A stretch of DNA of 64,000 bases from Candidatus Woesearchaeota archaeon (GTDB lineage: Archaea; Nanobdellota; Nanobdellia; Woesearchaeales; B29-G15). This document shows, piece by piece, positions 8,361-40,297 of the stretch. Made by a program: the position numbers and the translations under genes. The notes below the pieces were generated by a model that was given only the letters and a program-made list of their open reading frames with translations, was not told the DNA's origin and did not search any database. The stretch's first letter is position 1; each line of letters begins with the position of its first letter. The stretch covers positions 18,118 through 82,117 of the forward strand of contig JAFCCU010000002.1 in assembly GCA_017610005.1 (NCBI GenBank). Direction: 5' to 3'.

Positions 8361-8381
8361 ATAAACGGAGTGGGCCAAAAG

Positions 8382-8618
8382 ATGGAATTTGATATAACGA
8401 AACATTCACTTACCCCCAAGCACACTAAACTTGATTCTAAAGAGGAAGAAAAGTTCTTGGAAGATACAAAATATAGAAAAGTTCACTTGCCAAAGGTCTT
8501 TTTAGAGGATCCCAGCATTCAGCATTTAAAACCTGTTGTGGGAGATATTATAAAGATTGAGAGAAAATCTCCAACGGCAGGTGTAGCTTATTTTTACAGG
8601 GTGGTCTCAGATGAGTAA
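8382..8618 (+). CDS. rpoH: DNA-directed RNA polymerase subunit H (Rpb5 homolog)
   Basis: ~78 aa with the characteristic ITKHSLTPKH ... IIKIERKSPTAG ... YFYRVV pattern. ATG at 8382; the ORF-track GTG at 8370 lies only 10 nt after tRNA-Lys. Its stop overlaps the rpoB'' start (ATGAGTAA). Confidence 0.85.
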   Translation: MEFDITKHSLTPKHTKLDSKEEEKFLEDTKYRKVHLPKVFLEDPSIQHLKPVVGDIIKIERKSPTAGVAYFYRVVSDE

Positions 8619-10098: not shown

Positions 10099-10099
10099 A

Positions 10100-11902: not shown

Positions 11903-11903
11903 A

Positions 11904-20800: not shown

Positions 20801-20906
20801 CAATATTTGCTTTTTTTGCCTTTTTGTAAGTATTATTATCCTTCCAAAATTTACTTATTTCCTTTTCTATCTTGTGTGGGTCAAAATTGGACATCATAAT
20901 CACCAA
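17847..20906 (-). CDS. ileS: Isoleucyl-tRNA synthetase
   Basis: 1019 aa class I aaRS. HIGH-type motif GPPYTSGHVHIGTAWNK, YDMHGLP (the IleRS WDCHGLP equivalent), KMSKSLGN, and a CP1 editing-size insertion. Length fits archaeal IleRS. Confidence 0.9.
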   Translation of the reverse strand: MVIMMSNFDPHKIEKEISKFWKDNNTYKKAKKANIGKKSFYFLDGPPYTSGHVHIGTAWNKSLKDTVLRYFRMAGRDVWDRAGYDMHGLPTARKVQAKLNLETKEDIEKYGIAKFIIECKRFALENMGFMNEEFQSLGVWMDFDNAYMPITKEYIEGEWWLIKQAEKNKRLYQAEKTMHWCKSCSTALAKHELEYHNVKEDSIFVKLQIKDKPGEYLVIWTTTPWTIPFNMGVMVHPELDYVRIEVEGEIWIVSAGLCAPFLNAVVGKPYKVIEEFKGEELEGLKYVHPQTDEIDFFKKIKNKKVHTVVLSRDYVDLSAGTGLVHMAPGCGPEDYEVGHKEGIPPFNSLQEDGVFPESMGKFSGLTAKKDDGKFIEDLESRGALIATTKVEHDYAHCWRCKDPVIFRTTKQWFFKVEDLIEDLKKENEKIKWEPAWAGQNWFDSWLTQLRDNSITRQRYWGTPLPIWQCEKCNAYDVIGTVKELEKKAGFVPKDLHKPYIDKCTWKCKCGGTMIRSPDILDVWIDAGTSSWNCLDFPATKKNFEKLFPADFILEGKDQIRGWFNLLLVSSMVAMKKPSFKACYMHGFIQDSKGRKMSKSLGNIISPQEVIKDFGADAFRFYSIGGANAGLDLNYNADDVKTKYRSLGVLWNVHNYLLGYVNFKKKGKEDLVERYILSKLNSTIKEVTELFNNYKIDKIPGKVEELFLELSRSYIQFTREKLIVDPGLVAETIGKVLVGSLKLLAPITPFASEAMWQNLRKPLNLKEESVHLCKWPKADERVIDKKLEESMGLATGFIGAILAAREKANRGIRWPVIEATIIPNKKEFTSKIKPLISLMEKHTNVKSIVTKQTFKVNYAVKANFKTLGKKYGAEVRDVEKLIAKENPAKLVGKATAGKFKLGKYELDGDDLVIEEHLPGDYQMGECHYGRVYLNTELTKELEKEGLARELMRRVQDLRKKAGLKKEDKVELDVSDKMFKNFSSQIKLKCGVSKLSFGENKFKHKGSFEIIGKKFVISLKP

Positions 20907-21782: not shown

Positions 21783-21813
21783 AAGTTAACCAGAAATAAC
21801 CCTTGTGATCACC

Positions 21814-23841
21814 ATGATAAAAAAGAGCTGGTTAATTTTCTTAGTAGCACTGCTACTTACATCAACAATAGTTACTGCAGGAGATTATTTATTTCCTGGC
21901 GCTTTTGAAGATAATTCTTTTTGGATCGTTTCAATTGAGAGAGATGATGCAATCCTCCCATGCCTTGGGATGATTGAGATTGGATCTGATGCAATTTTGG
22001 TTTCTCCAGAAGGAGAAGAACATCCTACTGAGATTATTTATGGGCCTCATTTCTTTTCTGAAACCTTTATGAATCGGTGGAGAATTGGTGCTGCAGGATT
22101 AAAATTACCTGAAGAACTATTGGGAGAAGGATGGCAACTTAAGTTAACTTGTGAAACCGAAACAGTAAATTGTGTTGACCAATTGTTTTACAGAGATGAT
22201 GATGGGGTTGAAGAAGAAAAATTACCTGGTTTTGCTTATGGTATTTATGAAGATGAACTACAAAGGGTTGATAATATTTGTGAAGATGATATTGTAACTC
22301 AAGCAGTTTGTAGTGATGACAACATAAGTGTTGAGATAGTAAATCTTGAATGCCCAGCAGGTTGCGCTGGGGCTCACTGTGCTCCTGTATTTGTATGCAT
22401 TGATTCAGATATTGATGAAGAAGATTTTACTGTTATTGCTGGTTTTGTTAATATAACAAGGTATGATGAGGAATATAATGAAACCATTTCTATTGCAGAA
22501 TCTTTAGATGTTTGCGATACTAGGGCATTAACAGAATATTATTGTGAAGATGAAACTGCAACAGAAGCAACTTCTGTTGTAATTTACTGTGATCCTGAAT
22601 GTGCTGACGAAGGATCTTGCATGACCCCAGAAGTTGTTATTGATTGGGATAATATCTCTGGATGTTGTTTAAACAAATTAACAGAGCCTTGCAGATATTA
22701 TGATTCGGCTTTAGAGTGTTGCCCAGTAGAAGGTTATGAAGATGTTGTCGATACCTTTGCGCCTCAAAATCAAGAGGAATGTTTGGCTGACTTCTTTTTC
22801 GAATCAGATAATGCTGAAGCATGTGCAGAGATGGGTCCTGAAGATGCAGAAAATTATAGACTTTGTGAAAAAGGATGCTGTTGTGAATATACGACTGCGG
22901 CTGTTGATTGTGGGCCTGAAGAGGAAACTTGTGAATCAACATTAACGGTTACTGCGGCAAATCAATTATCTAGTGTAGCATGTGCAGTAATTGAAGGCCA
23001 CAGGGCTTACTACACATTTGAAACTATTGAAACTTGTTCAATTGAGTCTTGCTCTGAAAGATTAGGAGGAATAGCTGAAAATCAACCTCCTGTATTTGAG
23101 TTATTAGAAGGTCAAATTGATGTATGCCTTGGAGATGAAGTTAAGTTTGATGTTCAGGCAATTGACGCCGATTCAGACTTTTTAATTTATTCAACTGGAG
23201 TTTTACCTGAAGGTGCAACCTTTCAACAAAAAACAATTCCTCAATATGTTGATGAAGGTTATTCAAGTGAGGGGTATGTCTTTACGTGGACTCCAAGTGA
23301 GGTAGAATCAGTTACTCTTAACTTTTCTGTAACTGATAATCTTTATGAAGTCTCACAAGGAGTTGTAATAAATATTAGTGATTGTAATCCAGTCACAATC
23401 AGCGAATGTAAACCAATGACTCCTCCAAATAATAATACAATTTGTTTGGGAGATAAATTCTCATTTTGTTTAGGGATGGGAGAAATATCAGCAGATTCAT
23501 TGCCTGAGGGAGCAACTTTTAACCAAAATTGCTTTGAATGGGAACCAACTGAAGAAGGCCAATATACTGTAACTTTCGTAAAGGAAGATTGTGAAGAACC
23601 ATTAAATCAAGAGCTGTTTGTACAAGATTGTGATAATGGTTTGGGAGAGTGGATAAAGGGTTTATTTATTGGGGCAGGCATTGCCGCAATAATTGTAGCA
23701 ATCCTTGCTTTTATTGTATGGAAAGGGGTCCTGACGATTGTTTGGTTTGGAATTTCCCTTGCAACAGCTCCTTTGCTATTTATGTCCATATTTGTAGCAA
23801 TCGGAGCAATAGTGGGCGCACTGGTCTGGGGGCTTCTCTAA
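21814..23841 (+). CDS. Cys-rich modular surface protein A: signal peptide, CxDxDGG-type Cys repeats, GCC...GCCC signature module, two He_PIG/cadherin-like domains, C-terminal double TM anchor
   Basis: ATG at 21814 (the ORF-track GTG at 21805). MIKKSWLIFLVALLLTSTIVTA signal. Signature module ~22660-23050 (GCCLNKLTEPCRYYDSALECCPVEGYE...EACAEM...GCCCEY). LPEGATF...W(T/E)P He_PIG-like motifs. C-terminal hydrophobic helices. Confidence 0.8.
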   Translation: MIKKSWLIFLVALLLTSTIVTAGDYLFPGAFEDNSFWIVSIERDDAILPCLGMIEIGSDAILVSPEGEEHPTEIIYGPHFFSETFMNRWRIGAAGLKLPEELLGEGWQLKLTCETETVNCVDQLFYRDDDGVEEEKLPGFAYGIYEDELQRVDNICEDDIVTQAVCSDDNISVEIVNLECPAGCAGAHCAPVFVCIDSDIDEEDFTVIAGFVNITRYDEEYNETISIAESLDVCDTRALTEYYCEDETATEATSVVIYCDPECADEGSCMTPEVVIDWDNISGCCLNKLTEPCRYYDSALECCPVEGYEDVVDTFAPQNQEECLADFFFESDNAEACAEMGPEDAENYRLCEKGCCCEYTTAAVDCGPEEETCESTLTVTAANQLSSVACAVIEGHRAYYTFETIETCSIESCSERLGGIAENQPPVFELLEGQIDVCLGDEVKFDVQAIDADSDFLIYSTGVLPEGATFQQKTIPQYVDEGYSSEGYVFTWTPSEVESVTLNFSVTDNLYEVSQGVVINISDCNPVTISECKPMTPPNNNTICLGDKFSFCLGMGEISADSLPEGATFNQNCFEWEPTEEGQYTVTFVKEDCEEPLNQELFVQDCDNGLGEWIKGLFIGAGIAAIIVAILAFIVWKGVLTIVWFGISLATAPLLFMSIFVAIGAIVGALVWGLL

Positions 23842-23930
23842 CTTTTTTTTAATTAACTCCTTTATGGAGACCATTTTAATACGAAATATTTAAAAGAACA
23901 AGCTAACTTTCGTATTCTTGGTGATTATTT

Positions 23931-24362
23931 ATGGCAATTGTAGGATTTGGATTCACAAAAATACTTGTTGAGAAGAAAAAACAGTTAACCTCAAAAATTA
24001 ACATTAAAAATAATATTGCAATAAAAGATATTGTAGAACATGATTTTCATGATGCAGGAAAAGATAGGCAAGGCCTAAAATTTATATTTGAGTTTATATC
24101 AAGTTATGATCCTGGAGCAGCCGAAATAAGACTTCTTGGAGAGGTTTTTTTTATTGCTGAAACAAAGAAATCTCAAGAAATATTAAACACATGGAAGAAA
24201 GACAAGAAAGTAACAAAAGAAGTTATGCCAATTGTCTTAAACTATGCTCTGTCAAGATCTAATGTTATGGCAATTTCATTATCAAAAGATGCTGGACTTC
24301 CACCTCCTTTGCCCATGCCAAGGGTAAACAATGAAAAGGCCGATAACTCTTATATTGGCTAA
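23931..24362 (+). CDS. Hypothetical cytoplasmic protein (143 aa) between surface-protein genes A and B
   Basis: ATG ORF with no signal peptide and no motif recognised. Confidence 0.4.
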   Translation: MAIVGFGFTKILVEKKKQLTSKINIKNNIAIKDIVEHDFHDAGKDRQGLKFIFEFISSYDPGAAEIRLLGEVFFIAETKKSQEILNTWKKDKKVTKEVMPIVLNYALSRSNVMAISLSKDAGLPPPLPMPRVNNEKADNSYIG

Positions 24363-24397
24363 AAGTTTATATATTTGTTATTCAATTTTTTATCTTA

Positions 24398-26581
24398 ATG
24401 ATTAGATATACTGCTTTCTTCATAGCATTTTTATTAGCAGTGTCAATTGCTTCGGCAGCTTGCACTGATACAGATAATGGTAAAACTTACTATGAACTGG
24501 GTAATTGCCAGGCCCCAAATGGATACCCTGGTGATGATGAATGCTGGGACTGGCAAATTGTTAGAGAAAAATTCTGTCAAGATGACGAATCCTGCTGGTT
24601 TTATGATCACCCCTGTAGATATGAATGTGAAGATGGGGCTTGTATTCCTAATCCTAACGAATATTTGATTCCTGTAGGATATGATGGCAAGTGGTACGGC
24701 GCAAGATATCCAAGTAAAAATGACAATATCCCACCTTGCCTTGCATCAGTTAATGAGGGAGATTCAATCAACCTTGTAACAGCAGAATGGCTGGAATTTC
24801 CTGCAAGGGTAGAAGAGGCGCCTCATTCATTTAGGGAGCATATGAATGATTTCCAGATTGTTATTACTGATAATTCAGTTTCAGAGGGACAAAGGCAAGG
24901 GTTAATATTTTCCGCAAGTTTAATTTGTGAAGATGATAGGATGCAATGTATTGATCAGGCAACAAAGGTTAATACTAATAGATACCCAGATGATGGTGAC
25001 TGGATGCCAGGCTTCGCATTTGGAAATTTTTCAGATGAAATTGTGAGAAAAAATAATTATTGTATTGATGATGAGAACTTAACAATATACACATGTGCTG
25101 ATAAATACAATATTCAAAATGTAACAGTTGTATGTGAAAATGGATGCAGTAATGGTCATTGTAAACCTAGATACTTCTGCGAGGATTTTGATGAAGGTCT
25201 TGATCTAAGAACCCCCTCATATGTGGAGATTACAATTGAGCTCGATGGAGAAGAGGATTTTGTTAGAGTATATGAAGATTATTGCAACGGGGATAAAAAA
25301 ATAACAGAGAGAACTTGCAATAGAGATGGAACCTACAAATCAAATATTGAATCATGCTCTTGTGAGGAAGAAGACTGCTGCGATGAAGGAGCATGTGTCA
25401 GTGGGGGGAGCATTAGTGATGTTCCAACAACAATAATCCCTCAAGACCCTGCAGGAACTGAAGATTCTGGATGTTGTTTAAACCCAAATAGGGAAGCATG
25501 CGCCTATTACGACCGGGCGGAAAATTGCTGCTTGGAATGGGAAGATGAATATTTAGTGGAGGGGGGCCCAGTTGATCAGGCAGATTGCCTTGCAAATTAC
25601 TTTTTTGTCTATGAGACAGATGATGCTTGTGCAGTAATGGGAGAAGCATACAATTCATTTGCAAATTATGAGATGTGTTCTTATGGGTGTTGTTGTGTCA
25701 AGGGCCCCATGGGAGATGAAGACTATGTTTATACTGCAACAATTGAAAGAGGGGCTCTTTGTATGGAAACAGATGATAAAATGTGGAGTCCTTTAGCAGA
25801 CATAATTAATTGCGATGAAGCAACTTGTAGGGGGATTATTGCAAATGGTGGGAGCATCAGTGATATTCCCACTATTGCTGACCCTATTATTGATGACCCA
25901 ATTATACCCTCCTCTACTGAACCAATCGAAGATGAAGTTTGCGCTAACGAGGAATTTAAATTATGTTTAGATACTATTGATCCCTTGGGGGGATTTTATC
26001 ACTTCCAAGCAACCTCTGTTCCTTCAGGGGTTGTATTTCATCAAGATCAAGGTTGTATTGTTTGGACTCCAATAATGGAGAATTTGGGTTGGAATATAAT
26101 GAAATTTCAAGACACTGAAAAGGGCAAGGAGGCCCAGATGGGAATAAATGTTTTGTCTTGCTGTCCTGAATTTGTTGAATTACCAAATCAAGAGTCTTGC
26201 ATTAACCAAAATTTAGAATTTTGTTTAGAGGCAGAACCCAATAATGGGAATTTAATCTTTTCAGCAACAACTTACCCTACTGGTGCTACTTTCACTCCCC
26301 TATCGGCTTGCTTTTTATGGAAACCAGAAAAAGAAGGACATTACACAGCTGATTTTTCAGTGTCCAACGGAGAATGTGGAGATCAAATGCAGGTTTCAAT
26401 TTATGCTGGCTCTTGTGGGGCAGAAATCAGCAGCGAGGATGGAGGAATTGATTGGGGACAAATGTGGGTGGGGATAGGTTTAGCGGTGTTGGGTATACTT
26501 GCAATAGCTTTAAGCTGGATTGCTTTCCCAGTATTTTTCGTTATAGAAGCAATTGCAATTGCAATTATGGTATTTTCATAA
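24398..26581 (+). CDS. Cys-rich modular surface protein B (closest paralog of A)
   Basis: Signal MIRYTAFFIAFLLAVSIASA. Signature module ~25469-25840 (GCCLNPNREACAYYDRAENCCLEWEDEY...DACAVM...GCCCVKG). Two He_PIG-like motifs (VPSGVVFHQDQGCIVWTP; YPTGATFTPLSACFLWKP). C-terminal TM. Confidence 0.8.
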   Translation: MIRYTAFFIAFLLAVSIASAACTDTDNGKTYYELGNCQAPNGYPGDDECWDWQIVREKFCQDDESCWFYDHPCRYECEDGACIPNPNEYLIPVGYDGKWYGARYPSKNDNIPPCLASVNEGDSINLVTAEWLEFPARVEEAPHSFREHMNDFQIVITDNSVSEGQRQGLIFSASLICEDDRMQCIDQATKVNTNRYPDDGDWMPGFAFGNFSDEIVRKNNYCIDDENLTIYTCADKYNIQNVTVVCENGCSNGHCKPRYFCEDFDEGLDLRTPSYVEITIELDGEEDFVRVYEDYCNGDKKITERTCNRDGTYKSNIESCSCEEEDCCDEGACVSGGSISDVPTTIIPQDPAGTEDSGCCLNPNREACAYYDRAENCCLEWEDEYLVEGGPVDQADCLANYFFVYETDDACAVMGEAYNSFANYEMCSYGCCCVKGPMGDEDYVYTATIERGALCMETDDKMWSPLADIINCDEATCRGIIANGGSISDIPTIADPIIDDPIIPSSTEPIEDEVCANEEFKLCLDTIDPLGGFYHFQATSVPSGVVFHQDQGCIVWTPIMENLGWNIMKFQDTEKGKEAQMGINVLSCCPEFVELPNQESCINQNLEFCLEAEPNNGNLIFSATTYPTGATFTPLSACFLWKPEKEGHYTADFSVSNGECGDQMQVSIYAGSCGAEISSEDGGIDWGQMWVGIGLAVLGILAIALSWIAFPVFFVIEAIAIAIMVFS

Positions 26582-26606
26582 TTTTTTAACATTAAATTTT
26601 GTAAAC

Positions 26607-27684
26607 ATGAAAAAAGTAATTCTCTTGCTAATTTTTCTTTTAAACATTTACACAGTCTCAGCAGGATGCTGCATCAATCCAAATAGCTACGCTTGTTAGA
26701 TAGTTGATACTCAATGTTGCCCAACAGATGGAGAATACTCTTCTCCTTTTGGCCCCTCTGGACCAAATGACTATAAGACTTATTGGTTTTATGATTCAAC
26801 ACATCCAGAAGCATGCGCAATAATGGGGCTTGAGTCAAGCCCAAATTACCAATTATGTGAATTTGGATGTTGCTGTGAGCTAATGCCAGAGGGGATAACG
26901 AATGGAAAGCCTATGGCCCAGGCAGCTTGCATGGATAATCATCAACGTTGGCACACTTTTGATCAAATACCAGATTGTTCACCAACAAATTGCGCAGCAA
27001 AATTTAACACAAAAGCTGTTGGAGCAACAACTACTACAATAAATTTAGAAACAGCAAGAAGGAGAACTGAGGAATCAGGAGTTGAAGCAGAAGACTTCTT
27101 TGAAAGAGTGCAAGCATGTATTGGAGAACAGTTAGTGTGGTGTCACGATTGGTATATAATTGAGGAAGGTAAAATCCTCCCAGTGGGCGCAATAAGGGTG
27201 AATGATTGCTTTCATTGGACTCCTGACCAGGAAGGAGAATATCAAATAAGTTTAGGATATACGTTTGATGTGCCAAGTTATATAGAAAGAATGTTGCCAG
27301 AACCCACTTTGAATATTTCAGTGGATTACTGTGGTGATTGCTTTCTTATTGCAGAGATTGCTGATGAAAATACTGCAGAAGGGATATGATCCCTTTTATG
27401 GTTGAAGCTGCAGATGAAGAAGGGGATTTACTCACTTACTCAGCATTAAATTTACCAGAGGGCGCAATTTTCAAAACTGATATTGGATTATTTTTTTGGC
27501 AGAGCAAGGATGCAACACCCGGCATATATGAATTAGAATTTGTTGTAACAGATGGAAAATGCACTGTTTTGAGAAAGTAACTCTTGAGATTGAAGAGTGC
27601 GGCGACACATCAATAGTATCACAGATTCTTGCTATGCTTGCTATAATTTTTGGTGGGGCAACTGTTTATACAATTGCTGCATGA
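26607..27684 (+). pseudogene. Decayed paralog C of the Cys-rich surface-protein family (in-frame TAG plus at least 2 frameshifts)
   Basis: Signal peptide and GCCINPNSYAC then TAG at 26697-26699, exactly where paralogs have the conserved Tyr (C-x-Y-x-D). The frame then continues through CCPTDGEY...EACAIM...GCCCE. Frameshifts near 27386 and ~27575. The He_PIG-like and C-terminal TM remnant (ILAMLAIIFGGATVYTIAA) are in other frames. Confidence 0.75.
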
Positions 27685-27761
27685 GTTGGTTTAATTGATG
27701 CCCCAGCCCATGTAAAACAATATGGTAAATTTCTCGCTGATACAACTGGTCTTGGAACTTT

Positions 27762-27932
27762 TTTAAACAAAAGAATTCCACCCTTCTATTGAAGGGTGGT
27801 CTAGGTGGAATTCTGTGTGCTCAAAAATTACCTATGATCGGTGGAATTCTGAGCATCAAAAACCACTCAACAGCGAGCAAGCTTTTCAACATGCCACCAA
27901 TGTATTCACTGGTGGTTTTTGACAAGCAGTTG
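27762..27932 (+). repeat. MITE-like intergenic repeat, copy B
   Basis: Same family as 20930..21075 and 54199..54485. Lies between the pseudogene and surface-protein gene D. Confidence 0.75.
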
Positions 27933-27985
27933 CAATGCATTTTAATAGAAAAATTTAAATGTTAAAACCTTAAATAATAATAACA

Positions 27986-29587
27986 ATGAAGAAATTTGTA
28001 TTTGTAGTCATTCTTTTTTTACTCTTTTTAACAGCGTGTGACAAAGATACAGATGGTGATGGAATTTCTGATACTGAAGATAATTGTATTGGTATTAGAA
28101 ACTCGGATCAAATAGATTCAGATAAAGATGGCTGGGGGGATCCATGCGATTTTAATGAAGATCTAAGTGAAACACTTTTATATTTTTCCGCAACCTGGTG
28201 TACTTATTGCCATGAACAGTTACCAATTATTCGAGAACTTGATCAAGACTTTCCAGATTTAGAAATTCAATATCTTGATTTTGATGCAAGGCAAGATTTA
28301 GTTAGGGAATATGGTATTGTGGGTGTGCCTCATTATGTATTTATAAAAGGAGATTGTTGGAAAAAAACAAGAGGTACAACAAGTTATTCAGAATTAGTTA
28401 ATTGGATGGGAAAGGGTGCTTGCGCAAGATCAGCAGCAGTCCGTAGCCAAGGAGTCAATTTGCAGTCTGAAGTCATAAGTCAGAAGTCACTCAAACCCCA
28501 AACCCCAAACCCCAAACCCCAAACCTTACCAACTGGTTGTTGTATAAATCCTAATGAAAATGCGTGTGTTTATTCTGATGATATTGATAAATGTTGCCCA
28601 GTAGATGGTTATGAAGAATCAATAGGACCGCAATCACAAGCTGAATGTAAAGAACATTGGTTCTTTCCCCACGCAACAGAAGAAGCATGCAGCGTAATGG
28701 ATCCATTAACTTATGAAAATGCACAATATTGTGAATTTGGGTGCTGTTGCGAGGCTACCCCCATAGGTATAGCTGCATTTGCCTCAGAAAAAATCAAGTG
28801 TAATGATTATTGGGGAAGTTATGAAGAATTAAATTGCACGGTAAATGATTGTTCTAAATTTATTGAAGGGGGGGCAACATTAAAGACTGCTTCTCGTGTT
28901 TCTCCAATGGCAACAATCTCAGTTACTCAAACAGAAGATGAAACTTGCGTTGATGAATTGTATATTTTTTGTACAGTAAATCCTTTAGCTACTGAGATAT
29001 CAAATTTACCTGCTGGCGCAATAATTACTAACAACTGCATTGAATTCACCCCCACTGAAGCCCGTAGTTATTCAATTACGTTTAGAGAGGGAGATTATTA
29101 TTCAGAGGTACTAAACTTAGAGGTAATAGACTGCTCTGATCCGCCAGTTTTAGGATTCTTGCGAAATCGGAATGTATACAAAAATCAGATATTTAGTATT
29201 AGGGTACGTGCTACTGGGACAGGAGATTTGACATATGTAGTAGAGGATATGCCTGATGATGCCAAATTCAATCCAAAAAAATTAAAATTTTCTTGGATTC
29301 CAAGAGAGGAGAACGTTGGCAAACAATATAATGTTAAATTTATTGTGATAGATTCAAATGGGAGAACTGATGAAAAAACAGTTGAACTTAATGTTAGAAA
29401 TTATTCTTTCATGTGGATAGCTGGTTTGTCATTGGCCCTTGCAGGTTTACTTTACTTAGGTGCATTATTTTCCGGATTGCTTGAATCTCTAACATGGTTT
29501 TCCTCTTCTGCATGGATATATGTTGCAGGGGCTTGTATTGCGATATCCTTTATTCTGGTCGCGCTTTATTTTCTTTCGGGATTATGA
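27986..29587 (+). CDS. Cys-rich modular surface protein D with thrombospondin type-3 repeats and a thioredoxin-like CxxC domain
   Basis: Lipobox-like signal (FLLFLTAC). TSP3 repeats DKDTDGDGISDTEDNC / DSDKDGWGDPCD. Trx-fold motif LLYFSATWCTYCHEQ...GVPHYVFI. Pro/Thr linker encoded by repeats. Signature module ~28535-28860 (GCCINPNENACVYSDDIDKCCPVDGYE...EACSVM...GCCCEA). He_PIG-like LPAGAIITNNCIEFTPT. C-terminal TMs. Confidence 0.8.
   Translation: MKKFVFVVILFLLFLTACDKDTDGDGISDTEDNCIGIRNSDQIDSDKDGWGDPCDFNEDLSETLLYFSATWCTYCHEQLPIIRELDQDFPDLEIQYLDFDARQDLVREYGIVGVPHYVFIKGDCWKKTRGTTSYSELVNWMGKGACARSAAVRSQGVNLQSEVISQKSLKPQTPNPKPQTLPTGCCINPNENACVYSDDIDKCCPVDGYEESIGPQSQAECKEHWFFPHATEEACSVMDPLTYENAQYCEFGCCCEATPIGIAAFASEKIKCNDYWGSYEELNCTVNDCSKFIEGGATLKTASRVSPMATISVTQTEDETCVDELYIFCTVNPLATEISNLPAGAIITNNCIEFTPTEARSYSITFREGDYYSEVLNLEVIDCSDPPVLGFLRNRNVYKNQIFSIRVRATGTGDLTYVVEDMPDDAKFNPKKLKFSWIPREENVGKQYNVKFIVIDSNGRTDEKTVELNVRNYSFMWIAGLSLALAGLLYLGALFSGLLESLTWFSSSAWIYVAGACIAISFILVALYFLSGL
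28461..28527. repeat. In-frame simple-sequence tract inside gene D: octamer-family units followed by (AAACCCC) x 4.7
   Basis: cagtctgaagtcataagtcagaagtcac then aaacccc x4 plus aaacc (28493-28525). It encodes QSEVISQKSLKPQTPNPKPQT. Confidence 0.85.
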
Positions 29588-29648
29588 GCTTAGATATACT
29601 TAAGGATTTATAAAAACCTTTTTAAGTTCTCTGATATAACCTAAACAA

Positions 29649-31037
29649 ATGCTAAGAGTATTTAACACATTAACAAGGAAGAAAGAAGAGTTTATCCCAA
29701 TAAAACAAGGAGAGGTAAGAATGTATTCTTGCGGACTTACTGTTTATGGATTTGGGCATATTGGAAATTTTCGCGCGTTTATTGCATCTGATTTAATTTC
29801 TAGGTATTTAAAATATAAGGGATATAAGGTTACAAAGGTAATTAACATAACAGATGTTGATGATAAAACAATCAGGGGAGCAATTAAAGAAGGAGTCTCT
29901 TTAAACAAATACACTGAAAAATATATTAAGGGTTTTTTTGATGATATTAATACATTAAATGTTGATCCTGCTAATTATTATCCTAAGGCAACTGATTATA
30001 TTAAAGAGATAGTTGAACTTATTGAAAAATTAAAGGCTAAAGGCCATACTTATGAACAAGATGGCTCAATTTATTTTAAGATTTCAAGCGATAAAAATTA
30101 TGGGAAATTAGCGCATTTAGATTTTTCTAAATTAGTTGATAACGCGCAAGGACGGTTAGATTCTGATGAATATGATAAAGATAATGCAAGAGACTTTGTA
30201 TTATGGAAGGGTTACAAAGAAACAGATGGCGAAATATTTTGGAATACAAAGCTTGGCAAGGGAAGACCTGGATGGCACATTGAATGTTCTGCAATGTCAA
30301 CCAAATTATTGGGTGACTCTTTTGATATTCATACGGGTGGAGTTGATTTAATATTCCCTCACCACACAAACGAAATAGCTCAAAGTGAAAATGCAACTTG
30401 CAAACATTATGTGAAGTATTGGCTTCATAATGAATACTTAAAAGTTGAAGGCGAAAAAATGTCAAAGTCTTTGGGGAACTTTTTCACATTAAAAGATTTA
30501 TTAGAAAAAGGACTTGATCCAATAGCAATTCGTTATGAACTTTTAGCAACAAATTATAGAATGCCATTAAATTTTACAATAGATGGCGTAGGGGCATCAA
30601 AGGTTGCAATTGAAAAATTAAATAATTTTGTGTGGGAATTGACTGTTGCAAAAGAAGGAAAGTTATCAGAAAATATTGAAGAATTAATCAAATCAGCAAA
30701 AGATAACTTTGAATCTGCAATGGATGATGATTTTAATATATCTAGGGCACTTGCAAGTATATTTGACTTTATGAAATCAATCTTTAAAGAAGGATTTACA
30801 TCTGCTGATTCAAAACTAATTCTAAGTTTCTTAAAAAGTATCGATTCTGTGCTAGGAGTTATCTCTTTTGAAAGAGATACTGAGATTGATAAGAATATTG
30901 AGCAACTAATTGAACAAAGAAATATTGCAAGAAAAAATAAAGACTTTACAACAAGTGACAGAATTAGAGATGATCTGCTCAAGAAGGGAATTGAACTTTT
31001 AGACGGGCCAGAAGGCACTAAATGGCGCAAAAAATAA
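29649..31037 (+). CDS. cysS: Cysteinyl-tRNA synthetase
   Basis: 462 aa class I aaRS with MYSCGLTVYGFGHIGNFR (HIGH), KMSKSLGN, and the CysRS length and anticodon-binding tail. Confidence 0.9.
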   Translation: MLRVFNTLTRKKEEFIPIKQGEVRMYSCGLTVYGFGHIGNFRAFIASDLISRYLKYKGYKVTKVINITDVDDKTIRGAIKEGVSLNKYTEKYIKGFFDDINTLNVDPANYYPKATDYIKEIVELIEKLKAKGHTYEQDGSIYFKISSDKNYGKLAHLDFSKLVDNAQGRLDSDEYDKDNARDFVLWKGYKETDGEIFWNTKLGKGRPGWHIECSAMSTKLLGDSFDIHTGGVDLIFPHHTNEIAQSENATCKHYVKYWLHNEYLKVEGEKMSKSLGNFFTLKDLLEKGLDPIAIRYELLATNYRMPLNFTIDGVGASKVAIEKLNNFVWELTVAKEGKLSENIEELIKSAKDNFESAMDDDFNISRALASIFDFMKSIFKEGFTSADSKLILSFLKSIDSVLGVISFERDTEIDKNIEQLIEQRNIARKNKDFTTSDRIRDDLLKKGIELLDGPEGTKWRKK

Positions 31038-31065
31038 ATACTAGGGTTGTTGATTCTTAAGTATT

Positions 31066-32469
31066 GTGAAAAAAGAACTTATATATTTTTTAATGGCATT
31101 AGTATTATCTTTCTCAGTTGTTGGTGCTGGTTGTGATGGTTCAACCGGATTATGTGATGCTCCAGAAGAAGGACAAGAATGTATTTACGAAACAGATTAT
31201 GGATTTAATCTATACTTAAAAGGAACTTGTTCTGATGGGCAGATTGATCCAGTGACAGATAAATGCTCACAAGAAAGAGTGGGCGTGCCAGTTCAAATTG
31301 AAGAGTATTACTGCAATACTTACGGGCAGTGCCACATGATGCAAAAATGGTGCCCCAATGGGTGTTTAAATGGGGAATGTTTGCCTTCTGGTATACCTAC
31401 AACTTCTGCTACTCCTGGATGTTATGATGAAGATGGGGGTATTTTTTACGATCGACAAGGTACTTGCACAGATAAATTTGGAACCCACACAGAAAGTTGT
31501 GATTATGCAAAAGGGTATAGAATAACTGAATATTATTGTGTAAATGTAACTGGGGGAGATGGATGTGGGGGAGGAGTTTGTGGGGATGATGATGTTCCTG
31601 AATTCCGATGCATGGCGCAAGGCACAAGATGTAGTGGGGGTTATTGTGAGAGGGGCGCTTGTACAACTGAACTTTATATGGATAGTGCAACTCCTGGTTG
31701 TTGTTTGAACCCTAAAACAAGACCTTGTGATTATGTTTCTAATATTAGATCTTGTTGTCCTTCATCTTGGCAGGGATATGCTGCATGGGATGAACCTGGA
31801 CCAAAAGGGATATTTGATTGTGCAGCTGCTTGGTTTTTCCCTTCTGACTCTCCAGAGGCTTGTGCAGCCATGGCAGAAGCTGAGCATCCAAAAGCAGACA
31901 TGTGTGGCTTTGGCTGTTGTTGTTACAAAACTCCTAGTGATGAAATAAGGTCAGACCAACAAACCCAGTCAGAATGTACTGGCACCGATAAACAATGGGT
32001 AAATTTTGGTACAATAACTGAATGTACCCCCCAATATTGCCATGGTTACTTTGATGGGGGCACGCTTGCAGATGACCCAGATGTTCCAACCACAACTACC
32101 AGTGTGGAATACACTCCTGGCTCACCTCAAGAAGATGATGATGGGGATGGGGTAGTGAATGGGATTGATAATTGCATAAATACATTCAATTCTCAGAATA
32201 ATATTGATAATGATGAGTTTGGAGACGCATGTGATCCTGATATGGACAATGATGGAATAATAAATGAGGAAGATGAATGTCCTCTTGATATTACAAAATC
32301 AGTTAAACCTTGCAGTGACAAACAAATAGCCCCATTGTGGTTTTTGGCAGGAGGCGCATTAGCGGGATTAATTGCATCTTTTTTTATTCCTGGCGCAACA
32401 ATTATTATTGGATTGCTTATTGGTGCGATTTTAGGATTAATTGCATTATTATTGGTGAGTTCATTATGA
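31066..32469 (+). CDS. Cys-rich modular surface protein E (two CxDxDGG-type repeats, signature module, TSP3 repeats, C-terminal TM)
   Basis: GTG start. Signal MKKELIYFLMALVLSFSVVGAGC. Signature module ~31696-32050 (GCCLNPKTRPCDYVSNIRSCCP...EACAAM...GCCCYK). TSP3 DDDGDGVVNGIDNC...DPDMDNDGIINEEDEC. TM FFIPGATIIIGLLIGAILGLIALLLV. Confidence 0.8.
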   Translation: MKKELIYFLMALVLSFSVVGAGCDGSTGLCDAPEEGQECIYETDYGFNLYLKGTCSDGQIDPVTDKCSQERVGVPVQIEEYYCNTYGQCHMMQKWCPNGCLNGECLPSGIPTTSATPGCYDEDGGIFYDRQGTCTDKFGTHTESCDYAKGYRITEYYCVNVTGGDGCGGGVCGDDDVPEFRCMAQGTRCSGGYCERGACTTELYMDSATPGCCLNPKTRPCDYVSNIRSCCPSSWQGYAAWDEPGPKGIFDCAAAWFFPSDSPEACAAMAEAEHPKADMCGFGCCCYKTPSDEIRSDQQTQSECTGTDKQWVNFGTITECTPQYCHGYFDGGTLADDPDVPTTTTSVEYTPGSPQEDDDGDGVVNGIDNCINTFNSQNNIDNDEFGDACDPDMDNDGIINEEDECPLDITKSVKPCSDKQIAPLWFLAGGALAGLIASFFIPGATIIIGLLIGAILGLIALLLVSSL

Positions 32470-33605
32470 AAAAGTATTATACTAAGAGTAATAATGCAAA
32501 TGATATCATGAAACAAATCATATATTTTTTAATTGCAGTTTTATTAATTTGGAATGCTACTGCTACAGCTTATGATCACAGTTGTACTGATAGTGATGGG
32601 GGTAAGAATTACCATATTAAAGGTAATTGTGTTGACTATGACCAATCTGAGATGGACTACTGCAATGGTTATAATTATATCCAAGAGTGGTATTGCTTTT
32701 CTGGCTGTATGGACTTCCCCATGGAAGCTAGTTCAGAATTGCAAGGCCATGATCCTAATTGTATCTGGGGTTGTTATGATGGTAGATGCGCAAGTAATGG
32801 AGAAATCATTGAAAGTTTAGGTTTAATTTACACTCCGGGAGAGTGCCTTGATACAGATGGAGGAATTGATAAATTCACTGATGGAATTTGTATAGACTCA
32901 GATGGGAAGTATTACATCGAACAATGCAATAAGGGGAATGTAGAGGAATATTATTGTGAAAGCAATATGTGCAAAAGAGCATTTGGAGAACAGGATACTT
33001 ATTGTCCTGGTGGAACAGGTGAGATGCAGGATCAGGGAGGATGTGAAGCTGGCGCTTGTAAGAAAGTTGATGAAACCTTAAGTGGGTGTTGTTTTAATCC
33101 TGATACTGTTGCTTGTGAATGGATAGATAAAAGAGATGACTGCTGTCCTGTTTTTGGAGATTATGAAAAAGATTTGCCTTTTGGGCCAGATAAGACAACT
33201 GATTGCATTAATAATTGGTTCTTTAAAACTGAAAAGAGCGAAGAATGCCCTCCTAAATTAGATGTGTTTGAAAATAGTAAACATTGTCTTAATGGTTGCT
33301 GTTGCTTTAGAGATCCTGAAGGAGTTGCTCACGCAACTATTCTTCCCCAATTAGTTTGTAAATGGTGGCAGCCTTTTGAAGCTGTAGAAGAATTTGGTTG
33401 TGTTGATTCATATTGTGAAGAAATTGTGCCAATTGTAGAAGCAGGGATTGTTCCGCCTAAAGCTACAACTACAATTTTACAAGAGTCTCCGACAACAATA
33501 AATATCCAAGAACCAGAAGGAACTGGACTAAATACGTTTCAAATCTCAATTATAATTTTTATTATCCTTGTATTGTTCATCCTTGCAGCCCTCTTTTTGC
33601 TGTAA
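32466..33605 (+). CDS. Cys-rich modular surface protein F
   Basis: ATG at 32466 overlaps the stop of gene E (ATGA), so the two are translationally coupled. The ORF-track N-terminal extension from 32337 is an artefact. Signal MKQIIYFLIAVLLIWNATA. Signature module ~33084-33420 (GCCFNPDTVACEWIDKRDDCCPVFGDYE...GCCCFR). C-terminal TM. Confidence 0.8.
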   Translation: MKKYYTKSNNANDIMKQIIYFLIAVLLIWNATATAYDHSCTDSDGGKNYHIKGNCVDYDQSEMDYCNGYNYIQEWYCFSGCMDFPMEASSELQGHDPNCIWGCYDGRCASNGEIIESLGLIYTPGECLDTDGGIDKFTDGICIDSDGKYYIEQCNKGNVEEYYCESNMCKRAFGEQDTYCPGGTGEMQDQGGCEAGACKKVDETLSGCCFNPDTVACEWIDKRDDCCPVFGDYEKDLPFGPDKTTDCINNWFFKTEKSEECPPKLDVFENSKHCLNGCCCFRDPEGVAHATILPQLVCKWWQPFEAVEEFGCVDSYCEEIVPIVEAGIVPPKATTTILQESPTTINIQEPEGTGLNTFQISIIIFIILVLFILAALFLL

Positions 33606-33659
33606 AATTGGGAAAATTTTATATACCTTGGACATAACTTTTATATCCATAGATAACAA

Positions 33660-35078
33660 ATGTGCAAAATGAAAAGATTAATACCCCTGTTTATATTCTT
33701 ATTTGTAATTAGTTTTGTGTATGGTGGGACATACAATCCTCCAGCTCAAGGAATTGGGGCAATGACTTCTGCTTGGTGTATTGATGGAGATGGGCCCGAC
33801 ACTGGAGATTTTAGTACTCATCCAGATTATAGTGGAGACACAAACTGGGCCCCAGAACCAAGAAAAGTTAAAAGTTTTTGTACAAGCCAAATAGATTACC
33901 CTCATCAAAGAGAAGATTCTTGTGTTGATGGATTGTACTCTTTAATGGAATGGGAATGTACTGGCTGTGCAGGTGGGGGCAGTCAAGAATGCGATAACCC
34001 TTTAGATACTTGCGAATTTGGGTGTGTTCATGGGGCATGTTTAGATTCAAGACAAGATTTATTGAACCACATTTATGGGGCAGATAGCCCTGCTTCACTT
34101 TGGTTTGAAGGCCAGTGTAAGGATTCTGATGATCATGATGGGTTTTTATATGATAAATATGATGGAATGGATTATACCGTCCAAGGGGTCTGTGTTGATA
34201 GTAGAGGAGATGTATTTATTGATTATTGCAATAAAGGGCATTTACAAGAATATGTTTGCACTACCGGGGGAGACTGCACTCCACTTGATGAACCAGATGA
34301 TAATGAATGTGACTTGTGTAAGAATGGTAAGTGTATTACTCTTGATAAAACAGTTAGTGGATGTTGCTTAAGTGAGTTTACAACTGGGTGTGGGTATGTT
34401 GATAAATTAGATCAATGCTGTCCAGATTATGGCACTTACGCAGGTGATGATGAGACTGGTCCCACTAGCCCCGGAGATTGCCGTGATAATTATTTTTATG
34501 AAAGAGAAGATACAGAAGCTTGCAGTTTAATTCCTGATACTTTTGAAAATAAAGATTTATGTTTTAGTGGCTGCTGTTGCGATCTTGATACTGAAGGTAA
34601 TCCTCTTGGAAAGCCTTTAAAAAAAGTTGAATGTAACTTATGGCTTGCAGATGGTGTAATGGAACAATTTGGGGGATGTAATCCAGAAAATTGTTTAGTC
34701 GCATCAGGGGGGCAATCATTAATTTCAGGAGAGAGGGATAGCGATCAAGATGGGGTTAATGACGCAGAAGATAATTGTATTTATATCCCAAATCCAATAA
34801 ATGATGATGGGATCCAACTAGATTCAGATAATGATGGTTTGGGAGATGCCTGCGATCCAGATGATGATAATGATGGTATTTTGGATGTAGATGATGACCC
34901 AATAGTCCCTGAAACTTTTATGGAAAAATTATTTGCTTCAGAATCTTTCTGGGGGATACTTATTGCAATATTTGTTGTCCTTGCATTAATATTTTTTACT
35001 TCATTAACTTGGATACCAATTACCCTAATAGGTATTGGAATAGCACTAGCAGGAGTTTTAATTGAGTTTTTGGGGTGA
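33660..35078 (+). CDS. Cys-rich modular surface protein G (signature module plus TSP3 repeats plus C-terminal TM)
   Basis: Signal MKRLIPLFIFLFVISFVYG. Signature module ~34359-34700 (GCCLSEFTTGCGYVDKLDQCCPDYGTY...EACSLI...GCCCDL). TSP3 DSDQDGVNDAEDNC...DSDNDGLGDACDPDDDNDGILD. Confidence 0.8.
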   Translation: MCKMKRLIPLFIFLFVISFVYGGTYNPPAQGIGAMTSAWCIDGDGPDTGDFSTHPDYSGDTNWAPEPRKVKSFCTSQIDYPHQREDSCVDGLYSLMEWECTGCAGGGSQECDNPLDTCEFGCVHGACLDSRQDLLNHIYGADSPASLWFEGQCKDSDDHDGFLYDKYDGMDYTVQGVCVDSRGDVFIDYCNKGHLQEYVCTTGGDCTPLDEPDDNECDLCKNGKCITLDKTVSGCCLSEFTTGCGYVDKLDQCCPDYGTYAGDDETGPTSPGDCRDNYFYEREDTEACSLIPDTFENKDLCFSGCCCDLDTEGNPLGKPLKKVECNLWLADGVMEQFGGCNPENCLVASGGQSLISGERDSDQDGVNDAEDNCIYIPNPINDDGIQLDSDNDGLGDACDPDDDNDGILDVDDDPIVPETFMEKLFASESFWGILIAIFVVLALIFFTSLTWIPITLIGIGIALAGVLIEFLG

Positions 35079-35131
35079 ATTATTAACATTTGCCCACAAA
35101 GTTTAAATAACATTTTTTTTATTTAATTAGA

Positions 35132-37624
35132 ATGAAGTATTCACTTTCTTTACTCCTTTTCTTACTAATCCCCCTAACCTTCGCCGCAACACTTGAGACT
35201 TATGAGGGCGGAGCTGTTGACCCAGCAGGATTTTCTATGAGTGCTAGTGGCGCGCAAACACTTAGCATTAGTAAAACTGTTTATACTGACAGCACAATTC
35301 CCTTACAAATCTCCAATTCAATATATGGTTTTTCAATTTCAGGCAACTTCAATTTACAAACAGACTCAGCAACATTAAGAGTGATTTTAATAGATAGTAA
35401 TGACCAAGAATACTTGGTTTTTGAAGCATATAACTTGCTTTATGGCCAAGGTTATGGCTCATTTAATTACATCTGCGAAGAAACCTGCTTACTTCATGGA
35501 GTTAACCCAAGTAATCTAAAAGTTGAAATTGATGGTGCAACAATGGATATAGCTAATGCCCATTATATAACCCAAAGGCCTCTTTCTCCGCAGGCCATTA
35601 GTACACAGAAAAGTGATAATCAACAATCTCAAACAAATTTTAAAATCCAAAAGTTAAATGAAAAAGCAGAAGGCTGGATTGCTGGAGAAACTGAGGTGGG
35701 GAATTTATTATATTCAGAAAAAAAAAATCTTTTTGGAGGAGAAAAACTTCCTAACTTGCAAGGATTTGAATATTATAAAGGAGGAGTATTCTCTTTTGGC
35801 AAAAGCACAACAGTTAATCAAAAAAATTTAAACTTCCAGTTTCCAATTAAATTTGATTGGCGTGACCGCCATGGCAAGTCTTGGATTCCCAATATTGAAT
35901 CTCAAGGTCATTGTGGCGCTTGCTGGGCGTTTGGAGTATCATCAACAGTTGATGCAGTAATTAATTTGTATTATAATCGAAGGTTAAACATTGACATGTC
36001 TGAACAACACATTATTTGTGATAAAAAGGGTTCGTGTGTGGGTGGAGCTTGGCCACAAAGAGCTTTAAACCTTTTTAAAAATGAGGGAATTGTTGAAGAG
36101 AATTGTATGTATTATTCTGCAAGGGATGATGATTGTGATAGGTTATGTAATGAATGGCAAAAATCTCTTTGGAAGATTGAGGATTACCATCTTGTATTGG
36201 GATCAGATGATTCAATAAAAAAAGCATTAATTGAGCATGGGCCTTTAACTTTTGCGACTGCATTTTGGGATGGGAGATCAATGGAAGGTTCAAATTACGG
36301 AAATTTCCCGGATGGTCCAAGGCCTTGGGCAAATCATGCGATGAGTCTTATTGGATATGAGACTGGTTCATTAGAGACTATTTGGATTGTTAAGAATTCC
36401 TGGGGCCGTACCTGGGGCCAAAATGGTTATGGCTATATTCAACTGCCTTTTATTCAAAGATGGTCTATATACTGGATTGAACATCCTTATTTGGAATATG
36501 ATCCTGATAGATTTGAAGTGAGATGTGAGGATAAGGATGGAGATAATTATTGTAATTGGGGAATAATTGGGGATAAACCTGTTACTTGCCCAGAGAATTG
36601 CCTTCAATTAAAAGATTGCGATGATTCAAATCCTCACTTTGGCCCATACTCAGATACATTTGAATGTATTGAAATAACCTCCAGCAGGGCAGGAATTTCA
36701 GTAAAGAATGATTCAAAAGGGTGTTGTGTAAATCCCTATAGCGAGGCATGTGTGATATCCACAAAAAATCAGTGTTGCCCAGATGAAGGATATGGGGTTA
36801 CAAAAGATTTGGGACCAATTTCAAGAGAAGAATGTGAATCTCATTTTTTTTACCCTTCTGAATCAGCTGAAGCATGCGTGCTTATGGATTTATCAAGTTT
36901 TCCAAATGCTAATTTTTGTAATGCTGGTTGCTGCTGCACTAGATTTGAAGATTCTAAATTTTCTTTCCCTCTGCTGGAGGGTGAAGAAAAAATAAAGGCT
37001 CAATGTTTAAATGATTATCAAAGATGGTATACTTATCAGGAAGTAGGAGGATATTGTTCTAATTGGGAATGTGGGAATATTGCTTCAGGCATAGCCAGTA
37101 CATCAGGAACTCTTTATGGATCGCATCCGATAGATGAGTTTAATAGGCCACTTATTTCTTCTGCTATAGAATACAAGGGAACTGTGGGTGAAGAGTTAAT
37201 GTTTAGAATTGAGGCCACTGGGGCAAAACCAATTACTTTTTTAATGTTAGAATTTGAAAAGCCAATCCCTAACGGTGTTGAATTTAATCCAATCACTGGG
37301 GTTTTTAAGTGGACTCCAAAAAAAGCAGATGTTTTTACATTCAAGGTTGTAGCTCAAAATAAGAATGGTTATGATTCTGAATTGATTCAAATAGATATTT
37401 TTGATAATTCTCCTGCAGGGAATAACCTTATGTGGGGGTTAATCTTAGCAGGATTAGCTCTTTTTGTGGCAATTATAGGGATTGCTTTTTATGGGCTTAT
37501 TGGTTTTGTTGCAGGGTTTTTGGGGCTTGCAGGGCTCTGGGGAATGATAATTTCTGGAGTAGCAATAATATTGGCTGCACCTTCAGCTGGTTTTATTTTA
37601 GGATGGATATTGGGTTTTTGTTAG
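35132..37624 (+). CDS. Cys-rich modular surface protein H carrying a papain-like (C1A) cysteine peptidase domain
   Basis: Signal MKYSLSLLLFLLIPLTFAA. C1 motifs ~35850-36450: FDWRDRHG, QGHCGACWAFG (catalytic Cys), ANHAMSLIGYE (His), VKNSWGRTWGQNGYGYI (Asn). Signature module ~36719-37080 (GCCVNPYSEACVISTKNQCCPDEGYG...EACVLM...GCCCTR). He_PIG-like IPNGVEFNPITGVFKWTP. C-terminal Gly-rich TMs. Confidence 0.85.
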   Translation: MKYSLSLLLFLLIPLTFAATLETYEGGAVDPAGFSMSASGAQTLSISKTVYTDSTIPLQISNSIYGFSISGNFNLQTDSATLRVILIDSNDQEYLVFEAYNLLYGQGYGSFNYICEETCLLHGVNPSNLKVEIDGATMDIANAHYITQRPLSPQAISTQKSDNQQSQTNFKIQKLNEKAEGWIAGETEVGNLLYSEKKNLFGGEKLPNLQGFEYYKGGVFSFGKSTTVNQKNLNFQFPIKFDWRDRHGKSWIPNIESQGHCGACWAFGVSSTVDAVINLYYNRRLNIDMSEQHIICDKKGSCVGGAWPQRALNLFKNEGIVEENCMYYSARDDDCDRLCNEWQKSLWKIEDYHLVLGSDDSIKKALIEHGPLTFATAFWDGRSMEGSNYGNFPDGPRPWANHAMSLIGYETGSLETIWIVKNSWGRTWGQNGYGYIQLPFIQRWSIYWIEHPYLEYDPDRFEVRCEDKDGDNYCNWGIIGDKPVTCPENCLQLKDCDDSNPHFGPYSDTFECIEITSSRAGISVKNDSKGCCVNPYSEACVISTKNQCCPDEGYGVTKDLGPISREECESHFFYPSESAEACVLMDLSSFPNANFCNAGCCCTRFEDSKFSFPLLEGEEKIKAQCLNDYQRWYTYQEVGGYCSNWECGNIASGIASTSGTLYGSHPIDEFNRPLISSAIEYKGTVGEELMFRIEATGAKPITFLMLEFEKPIPNGVEFNPITGVFKWTPKKADVFTFKVVAQNKNGYDSELIQIDIFDNSPAGNNLMWGLILAGLALFVAIIGIAFYGLIGFVAGFLGLAGLWGMIISGVAIILAAPSAGFILGWILGFC

Positions 37625-40220: not shown

Positions 40221-40297
40221 TTTAGAATATCTCTCTCTATTAAATTGATTTATATAGAAGAATAAGGTAGTCAGAATCAATTTATAAGGTTTGCCAT

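Follow-up and report, generated by a model that had tools for sequence, protein, structure and literature searches.

We analyzed gene D, an open reading frame (ORF) at positions 27986–29587 of a 64-kb stretch of DNA (64,000 nucleotides of contig JAFCCU010000002.1, hereafter the window). Gene D encodes a protein in which a thioredoxin (Trx)-fold domain with a CxxC active site precedes a module of 14 conserved cysteines, with a signal peptide at the N-terminus and a hydrophobic anchor at the C-terminus. The Trx-fold identity of amino acids (aa) 56–146 is solid. We propose, with a probability of roughly 45%, that gene D is a membrane-tethered oxidoreductase resembling protein disulfide isomerase (PDI), which would serve as an oxidase or isomerase for the Cys-rich protein family encoded beside it.

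Architecture of gene D and its thioredoxin-fold domain

The features of gene D are listed below. Model values refer to AlphaFold2 (AF2) and its predicted local distance difference test (pLDDT) scores, and cisPro−1 denotes the residue preceding the cis-proline.

27986–29587, + strand: gene D, a complete, unbroken ORF of 533 aa (ORF list, Pfam, domain map, hydropathy)
27986–28039, + strand: signal peptide ending in the lipobox L-T-A-C18 (MKKFVFVVILFLLFLTAC); hydrophobic stretch at aa 1–22 (hydropathy)
28040–28150, + strand: single thrombospondin type-3 (TSP3, Ca-binding) repeat, aa 19–55, with the pair C34/C54 (Pfam TSP_3)
28151–28423, + strand: Trx-fold domain, aa 56–146, β-α-β-α-β-β-α, with an extra conserved Cys pair C124/C146
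28199–28210, + strand: active site C72-T-Y-C75, with W71 before it (translation, alignment to Trx/PDI)
28325–28330, + strand: V114-P115, predicted cis-Pro loop with Val at cisPro−1 (translation, alignment)
28424–28531, + strand: linker, aa 147–182 (36 residues), rich in Pro, Gln, Ser and Lys (AF2 pLDDT <50 at model residues 96–124)
28532–28873, + strand: signature module of the family, aa 183–296, with 14 conserved Cys (profile match of 126 bits)
28940–29401, + strand: two immunoglobulin (Ig)-like domains, one Cys-framed (aa 319–384) and one He_PIG-like (aa 385–472) (Pfam, AF2, homology to paralogs)
29402–29584, + strand: C-terminal membrane anchor, hydrophobic helices at about aa 473–502 and 505–533 (hydropathy)

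Gene D matched the Pfam Thioredoxin family (PF00085) over aa 56–141 with 44.7 bits against a gathering cutoff of 23.5 (E = 1.5e-11), and its two relatives of similar architecture, P0055 and P0070 (described below), likewise matched this family. A phmmer search of the PDB sequences with gene D returned 197 thioredoxin/PDI chains. The segment W71-C72-T-Y-C75 aligned with the WCGPC and WCGHC motifs of PDB thioredoxins and PDI domains, and G-V114-P115 aligned with their cis-Pro loop. P115 is invariant in the three Trx-module proteins and would correspond, as judged by alignment, to Pro76 of Escherichia coli Trx and the equivalent PDB prolines. In an AF2 model of aa 50–300, built on a 32-sequence family alignment (A4), the Trx core was predicted at pLDDT 78–87 with strands and helices in the order expected for Trx, and a helix started at the CxxC motif (H24–39 of the model, aa 73–88). 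The β-α-β-α-β-β-α topology is superposable on solved thioredoxins, and a PDB fold search placed the exported thioredoxin TrxP of B. fragilis (PDB 3hxs) among the top structural neighbours of the two-domain model. The preliminary description of this DNA, which was made from the letters alone, had proposed a Trx-fold segment with a CxxC context fitting a thioredoxin-like active site, and both proposals are borne out by the Pfam match, the PDB alignment and the modelled topology. It had also suggested a profile search against the thioredoxin and DsbA families, of which Thioredoxin was found and DSBA was not.

In an alignment, the domain differs in several respects from E. coli TrxA. The N-terminal β1/α1 unit is absent from gene D, which leaves a minimal, glutaredoxin-sized fold, and the pair C124/C146 has no counterpart in TrxA. 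None of the NCBIfam equivalog cutoffs (thioredoxin, pdi_dom, dsbE, ResA, StoA and PDO) was reached by gene D, and we therefore classify the domain as a generic Trx/PDI a-type domain outside the named Dsb subfamilies. A classical cytoplasmic thioredoxin (TIGR01068) was rejected on a score of 35.9 bits against 96.8, a WCTYC rather than WCGPC motif, the replacement of Asp26 by Tyr65 and the export of the protein. In regards to a DsbA-type oxidase, no DSBA family appeared among the Pfam and NCBIfam matches, the domain of about 90 aa contains no helical insertion, and only the Val at cisPro−1 is DsbA-like. Membership in DsbC/G was rejected because the scores were under the cutoffs and the insertions are missing. 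The TlpA/ResA/CcmG (DsbE) group was rejected on similar grounds (dsbE, 18.4 vs 123.15; StoA, 17.1 vs 210; AhpC-TSA of Pfam, 15 vs 26; no insertion); the ResA profile scored 20.2 against 170 in P0070 and was not listed for gene D. Membership in the PDI family was rejected as well, since pdi_dom scored 26.1 against 107.2 and ER_PDI_fam 16.8 against 344, and gene D has a single Trx domain instead of the a-b-b'-a' arrangement. A PDI-like function is possible by analogy.

The N-terminus of gene D consists of MKK, a hydrophobic core and then the lipobox. The end of the signal peptide conforms to the lipobox definition (Leu/Val/Ile at −3, Ala/Ser/Thr/Val/Ile at −2, Gly/Ala/Ser at −1 and Cys at +1), and proteins with this motif are predicted to be prevalent in DPANN archaea (PMC12462473). 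Cys18 is invariant in all three Trx-module proteins (LTAC, FASC and FSSC) and may be lipidated. The TSP3 repeat scored 27.2 bits against a cutoff of 25 (PF02412, aa 17–41); its pattern, DxDxDGxxDxxDNC...DxDxDGxGDxCD, is present once, as DKDTDGDGISDTEDNC...DSDKDGWGDPCD, and the repeat is missing from the orthologs P0055 and P0070. Thus, of the N-terminal TSP3 repeats proposed in the preliminary description, the type is confirmed and the plural is not. In a single-sequence AF2 model of the full-length protein, of very low confidence overall (mean pLDDT 43), the Ig-like region was all-β and the anchor helices lay at aa 475–502 and 510–532. The He_PIG match in the Ig-like region was sub-threshold (22 bits vs a cutoff of 24, aa 396–470), and homologous segments were found in the paralogs. 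A PGF-CTERM/archaeosortase anchor was rejected: no such motif is present, and the tail is made of two hydrophobic helices. The number of ectodomain cysteines is even (24, besides C18 and the transmembrane (TM) residue C517). The signal peptide, the C-terminal TM helices, the TSP3 repeat and the even ectodomain Cys count together indicate an extracytoplasmic location, and the Trx/PDI-type CxxC domain is thus predicted to be extracytoplasmic and anchored to the membrane of the cell that makes it.

Three Trx-bearing module proteins were found: gene D, P0055 (497 aa, 36% identity to gene D) and P0070 (538 aa, 29% identity). A metagenome pattern scan based on the three-protein alignment gave no more Trx-module fusions beyond the P0070 contig. 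W71, C72, Y74, C75, P115, C124, C146 and the lipobox C18 are invariant across the three proteins, and the dipeptide inside CxxC is T-Y in gene D and R-Y in P0055. The identity between gene D and P0055 was 47% in the module, 43% in the Trx domain, 29–37% in the Ig-like domains, 28% in the anchor and 12% in the linker, the length of which varies among relatives. In the module, gene D and P0055 are each other's nearest neighbours, and the module of P0070 is nearest to that of P0055. P0055, annotated automatically as "thiol-disulfide isomerase/thioredoxin", lies on a 6.5-kb JGI contig (GC content 48.6%) that carries, in order, a module member, the Trx member, a cysteinyl-tRNA synthetase (CysRS) gene and a TSP3+module member, separated by gaps of 39–41 nt or overlapping. 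This gene order is identical to that around gene D, and the CysRS of the contig (L081:3312–4736) is 69% identical to that of the window. P0070 occurs on three contigs, one of which comes from an NCBI archaeal metagenome-assembled genome (MAG); its gene context differs from that of gene D, and it has the lipobox without the C-terminal TM helices. That a clearly distinct organism carries an ortholog in synteny indicates that the fusion is old and maintained. An assembly chimera was rejected, since orthologs of the same architecture occur in independent metagenomes. The active-site residues are, as judged from these alignments, under purifying selection. The exported, membrane-anchored Trx domain fused to a Cys-rich module, as the preliminary description had it, is supported by the signal peptide, the TM helices and the orthologs with the same fusion.

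The 14-cysteine module and its gene cluster

The module follows the pattern GCC..C..CCP..GP..C..WFF..AC..C..GCCC..C..W..C..C. A hidden Markov model (HMM) profile (A1) built from the paralogs in the window was used in an exhaustive HMMER search of 1.84 billion (1.84e9) representative proteins, and it matched 39 proteins (32 at E<1e-10), six of which are the window's own products. Gene D matched HMM positions 1–122 with 126 bits, and all 14 Cys columns are present. Exactly 14 cysteines were counted in 29 of the 32 aligned modules, and the variants mostly keep an even count; the preliminary description was right about conserved cysteines and short of the number, which it had put at about 12. An even, fixed count is what would be expected of seven disulfides per module, and we infer that the module cysteines are disulfide-bonded. 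AF2 modelled the module at pLDDT 93–98 on the 32-sequence alignment. The module matched no Pfam family and no PDB sequence at E≤10, a search of the GTDB species representatives with a single module gave no relatives, and literature searches on Cys-rich, thrombospondin or extracellular thioredoxin proteins of DPANN archaea and Woesearchaeota turned up no account of the family or its architecture. The module appears to be an undescribed domain.

Most members of the family begin with a signal peptide and end in a hydrophobic tail of 40–70 residues, and the family is confined to a few Woesearchaeota-like metagenomic lineages. A Pfam scan of 40 proteins (the 39 matches with gene D added) found TSP3 in 13, He_PIG in five, Thioredoxin in three, Peptidase_C1 in two and a MopE-like domain in one.

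Gene D belongs to a cluster of module-bearing genes, whose members are as follows.

21805–37624, + strand: cluster of eight co-directional module-bearing genes (ORF list, profile search), including gene D
21805–23841, + strand: module member
24398–26581, + strand: module member
about 26607–27600, + strand: disrupted module member (in-frame stop and frameshift)
29649–31037, + strand: CysRS, within the cluster, 61 nt downstream of gene D, with 28 nt separating it from the next member
31066–32469, + strand: module member
32337–33605 as listed, + strand: module member (GTG start, overlapping the preceding gene by 133 nt)
33660–35078, + strand: module member
35132–37624, + strand: papain-head module member (Peptidase_C1, 128 bits; then module, He_PIG and TM anchor)

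The intergenic gaps from gene D onward are 28–61 nt. The cluster proteins contain 3.6–8.1% Cys, and the eight listed ORFs total 259 cysteines (247 without the remnant 26823–27389). A third organism also carries a CysRS (L086:511–1902), 65% identical to that of the window, and P0057, an ortholog of the papain paralog 35132–37624 (33% identity), is encoded directly downstream of it. The CysRS and the surface genes may be transcribed together, which would couple the supply of Cys-tRNA to the production of proteins with 4–8% Cys, or their association may be inherited synteny.

A genome scan based on the CysRS returned 80 loci among the GTDB species representatives, the best being Candidatus Woesearchaeota at 57% and 53% identity; the module was beside the CysRS in none of the 80. 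Apart from a few archaeal MAGs, the CysRS of the window is closest to those of Kiritimatiellales/Pontiella (about 48–50%) and Acidobacteriota (about 43–49%), which suggests a bacterial-type enzyme. The window, with a GC content of about 35%, encodes split RNA polymerase B and A subunits, RpoH, FttA, a proteasome subunit, ABCE1 and ribosomal protein S12. This archaeal gene set and the closest CysRS sequences being from Woesearchaeota indicate a DPANN, Woesearchaeota-like organism.

In regards to the disrupted member, the reading frame runs through MKKVILLLIFLLNIYTVSAGCCINPNSYAC and is then broken by an in-frame stop, which falls on the conserved Tyr/Trp column. Only the second half of its module is covered by the listed ORF 26823–27389, and a He_PIG-like stretch follows in another frame after 27389. 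This member is a pseudogene or an assembly error. The first 43 residues of the listed ORF 32337–33605 resemble read-through, and its true start is probably an ATG at about 32466 (MKKYY...) or at about 32508 (MKQIIYFLIAVLL..., a signal peptide). The cluster is flanked by two class-I aminoacyl-tRNA synthetase genes on the − strand, 17847–20906 and 37782–40280, one IleRS-like and one of the Val/Leu type. A ProRS lies farther on (60317–61771, − strand), and the RNA polymerase operon occupies 8343–15601. With these core genes around it, the cluster sits in housekeeping DNA with no obvious mobile island. A further gene at 5740–7551 (+ strand) encodes a 603-aa protein with 16 Cys, an amidohydrolase domain and a TSP3 repeat, which is probably another surface enzyme with TSP3, outside the module family.

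Possible roles of gene D

According to the role we favour, gene D would be exported via Sec, and its signal peptide would be cut at the lipobox Cys18, which would possibly be lipidated. A flexible linker of about 36 residues would then carry the small Trx fold, with gene D's own 14-Cys module, the Ig-like domains and the two-helix anchor beneath it. The WC72-T-Y-C75 and V114-cisP115 site would swap thiols and disulfides with the cysteines of client proteins, the most likely of which would be the co-encoded paralogs, whose modules hold 14 Cys each, some of them in vicinal CC and CCC motifs. Error-free pairing of seven disulfides per module would be unlikely. Gene D would act as the PDI-like oxidase or isomerase of the cluster; the linker would give the Trx domain reach, and the common anchor and module would hold gene D beside its clients. 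Catalysis, the oxidase/isomerase rather than reductase direction and the identity of the clients are what we infer from the sequence. The preliminary description had offered a folding or isomerase partner and a surface effector as the two possibilities; the structural part of that proposal stands, and the evidence does not decide between the two roles. A role dedicated to the cluster is favoured because P0055 is syntenic in an orthologous cluster and the Trx domain is about as conserved as the module (43% vs 47%).

Several observations weigh against a folding role. DsbB, VKOR, Erv or CcdA/DsbD-type partners, the kind of dsb-like genes that the preliminary description had proposed to look for, were not found within the 64-kb window. 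No Trx member was seen on the 5-kb L086 contig, where the papain member follows the CysRS, and the Trx member is therefore not demonstrably obligatory. The Trx domain occurs in only 3 of about 40 family representatives, and the interchangeable heads (papain, TSP3 and MopE-like) fit a Trx surface effector equally well. Where Trx, PDI and DsbA have a buried acid (Asp26 in E. coli Trx), gene D has Tyr65 and P0070 has Phe. Furthermore, the A[TS]WCTYCH sequence is also present in bacterial-looking CcdA-like/TlpA/ResA-like Trx fusions of the reductase type (L092:560–1732 and L094:5555–6730), so the T-Y dipeptide is not specific to oxidases; as WC(T/R)YC is shared with such CcdA-fused proteins, the redox direction is unreadable from sequence. 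The other residues of the active site are of mixed character. The Trp preceding CxxC is as in Trx and PDI, and an aromatic residue before the second Cys is also found in DsbC, DsbG, glutaredoxins and archaeal PDO. The cisPro−1 residue is Val in gene D and Leu in P0070; Val at this position is typical of DsbA and glutaredoxins, and the hydrophobic residues Val and Leu shift Trx-fold proteins to more reducing potentials than Thr (PMC2665069).

The last of these cues would suit a reductive or maintenance role of the kind played by ResA, TlpA, CcmG and TrxP, in which the domain, supplied by a membrane electron donor, would keep particular surface cysteines reduced, such as metal-binding thiols or the catalytic Cys of the papain-head paralog, or would repair surface proteins that have been oxidised. 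The identity of A[TS]WCTYCH with the bacterial CcdA-Trx fusions, the exported TrxP among the closest structural neighbours and the papain-type cysteine protease, which needs a free thiol and is encoded in the cluster, point the same way. We nevertheless regard this role as improbable: no CcdA/DsbD homolog was found in the window, the TlpA/ResA/CcmG insertions are missing and the scores are far under the cutoffs (as for dsbE), and the even, fixed Cys counts make the family look disulfide-rich rather than thiol-rich. Gene D might instead be a redox-active surface effector, whose Trx head on the common module/Ig/TM stalk would act on host or partner surface proteins by reduction or by mixed disulfides. 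DPANN archaea are commonly episymbionts, and cell-surface PDI/Trx proteins in pathogen attachment and entry provide an analogy. Such a role agrees with the diversity of heads in the family and the papain paralog in gene D's own cluster, with the placement of the Trx domain on a flexible linker at the N-terminus, distal to the membrane, with the restriction of the family to a few lineages and with the lack of a dedicated redox partner in the window. A lipidated C18, on the other hand, would hold the Trx domain at the cell's own membrane and not outward, the conserved one-per-cluster position beside Cys-rich paralogs is more simply explained by an in-house role, and no host or target is known, so that we consider an effector rather unlikely.

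A non-catalytic Trx fold, which would only bind other molecules, have a structural function or act as a redox-sensing conformational switch without turnover, is highly improbable. The replacement by Tyr/Phe of the Asp26 equivalent, which speeds thiol-disulfide exchange, and the absence of β1/α1 would fit it; however, both cysteines, the Trp, the Tyr and the cis-Pro are invariant at 29–36% identity, a pattern typical of catalytic sites, and many Trx-fold enzymes, such as DsbC and CcmG, are active without the buried acid. In a bolder form of the favoured PDI-like reading, gene D and its orthologs would be at the catalytic centre of a self-sufficient oxidative-folding or disulfide-exchange system, specific to the lineage and located at the cell surface of Woesearchaeota-like DPANN archaea, in which the Trx domain is fused to a redox-active or docking 14-Cys domain, is conserved and co-transcribed with CysRS, and builds and possibly remodels a disulfide-cross-linked host-attachment apparatus without DsbB, VKOR or Erv-type oxidants. 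We give this extended proposal little credence.

Little is understood of extracellular disulfide chemistry in archaea, and less still in the tiny DPANN lineages that depend on a host. To our knowledge, many DPANN lineages appear to lack DsbA/DsbB or VKOR systems. Gene D is a concrete candidate for the folding or remodelling of Cys-dense surface proteins in DPANN archaea, and it provides an entry point to an undescribed 14-Cys domain that AF2 folds confidently (pLDDT >93). If the effector role were true, gene D would be a redox tool for cell-cell interaction.

Comparison with known thiol-disulfide oxidoreductases

The closest kind of known protein is the Trx/PDI a-type domain (PF00085), as in Sulfolobus TrxA2 (3hhv, 2e0q), ERp46/TXNDC5 (3wgd, 8eky) and the 89-aa malarial thioredoxin-like protein 4o32. 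Gene D differs from these domains in having T-Y (R-Y in P0055) instead of G-P or G-H within CxxC, Tyr/Phe at the buried Asp/Glu, no β1/α1 and the extra pair C124/C146, and in being exported within a 533-aa membrane protein. A single extracytoplasmic Trx-fold CxxC domain with a lipobox or TM tether is also the arrangement of bacterial ResA, StoA, TlpA, CcmG, BdbD, MdbA and TrxP, which have little beyond the Trx domain and use DsbB, VKOR or CcdA as partners. Unlike these anchored oxidoreductases, gene D carries its Trx domain in one chain with a 14-Cys module, Ig-like domains and a two-helix anchor, has none of the TlpA/ResA/DsbA insertions and has no partner in the 64-kb window.

Eukaryotic PDI and TMX proteins combine a signal peptide and a membrane anchor with a PDI-type Trx domain that lies in a lumen or outside the cell, and they fold Cys-rich secretory proteins. 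Gene D resembles them in its signal peptide, PDI-type Trx domain and membrane anchor and, by analogy, in its presumed role in the folding of Cys-rich proteins, whereas it comes from another domain of life, is without b/b' domains, shares homology limited to the Trx fold and has no identified Ero1, VKOR or QSOX oxidant. In QSOX, a Trx domain is linked flexibly to a second Cys-containing redox module, the Erv/ALR flavin domain. Gene D is similar, by analogy only, in combining a Trx CxxC domain, a disordered linker and another Cys-dense domain in one exported chain; unlike in QSOX, the second domain is of a kind other than the Erv/ALR flavin domain, matched neither a Pfam family nor a PDB sequence and gives no indication of redox activity. 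The kind of Trx enzyme is thus already known, and the new part is the architecture together with the very rare, undescribed archaeal surface family to which it belongs.

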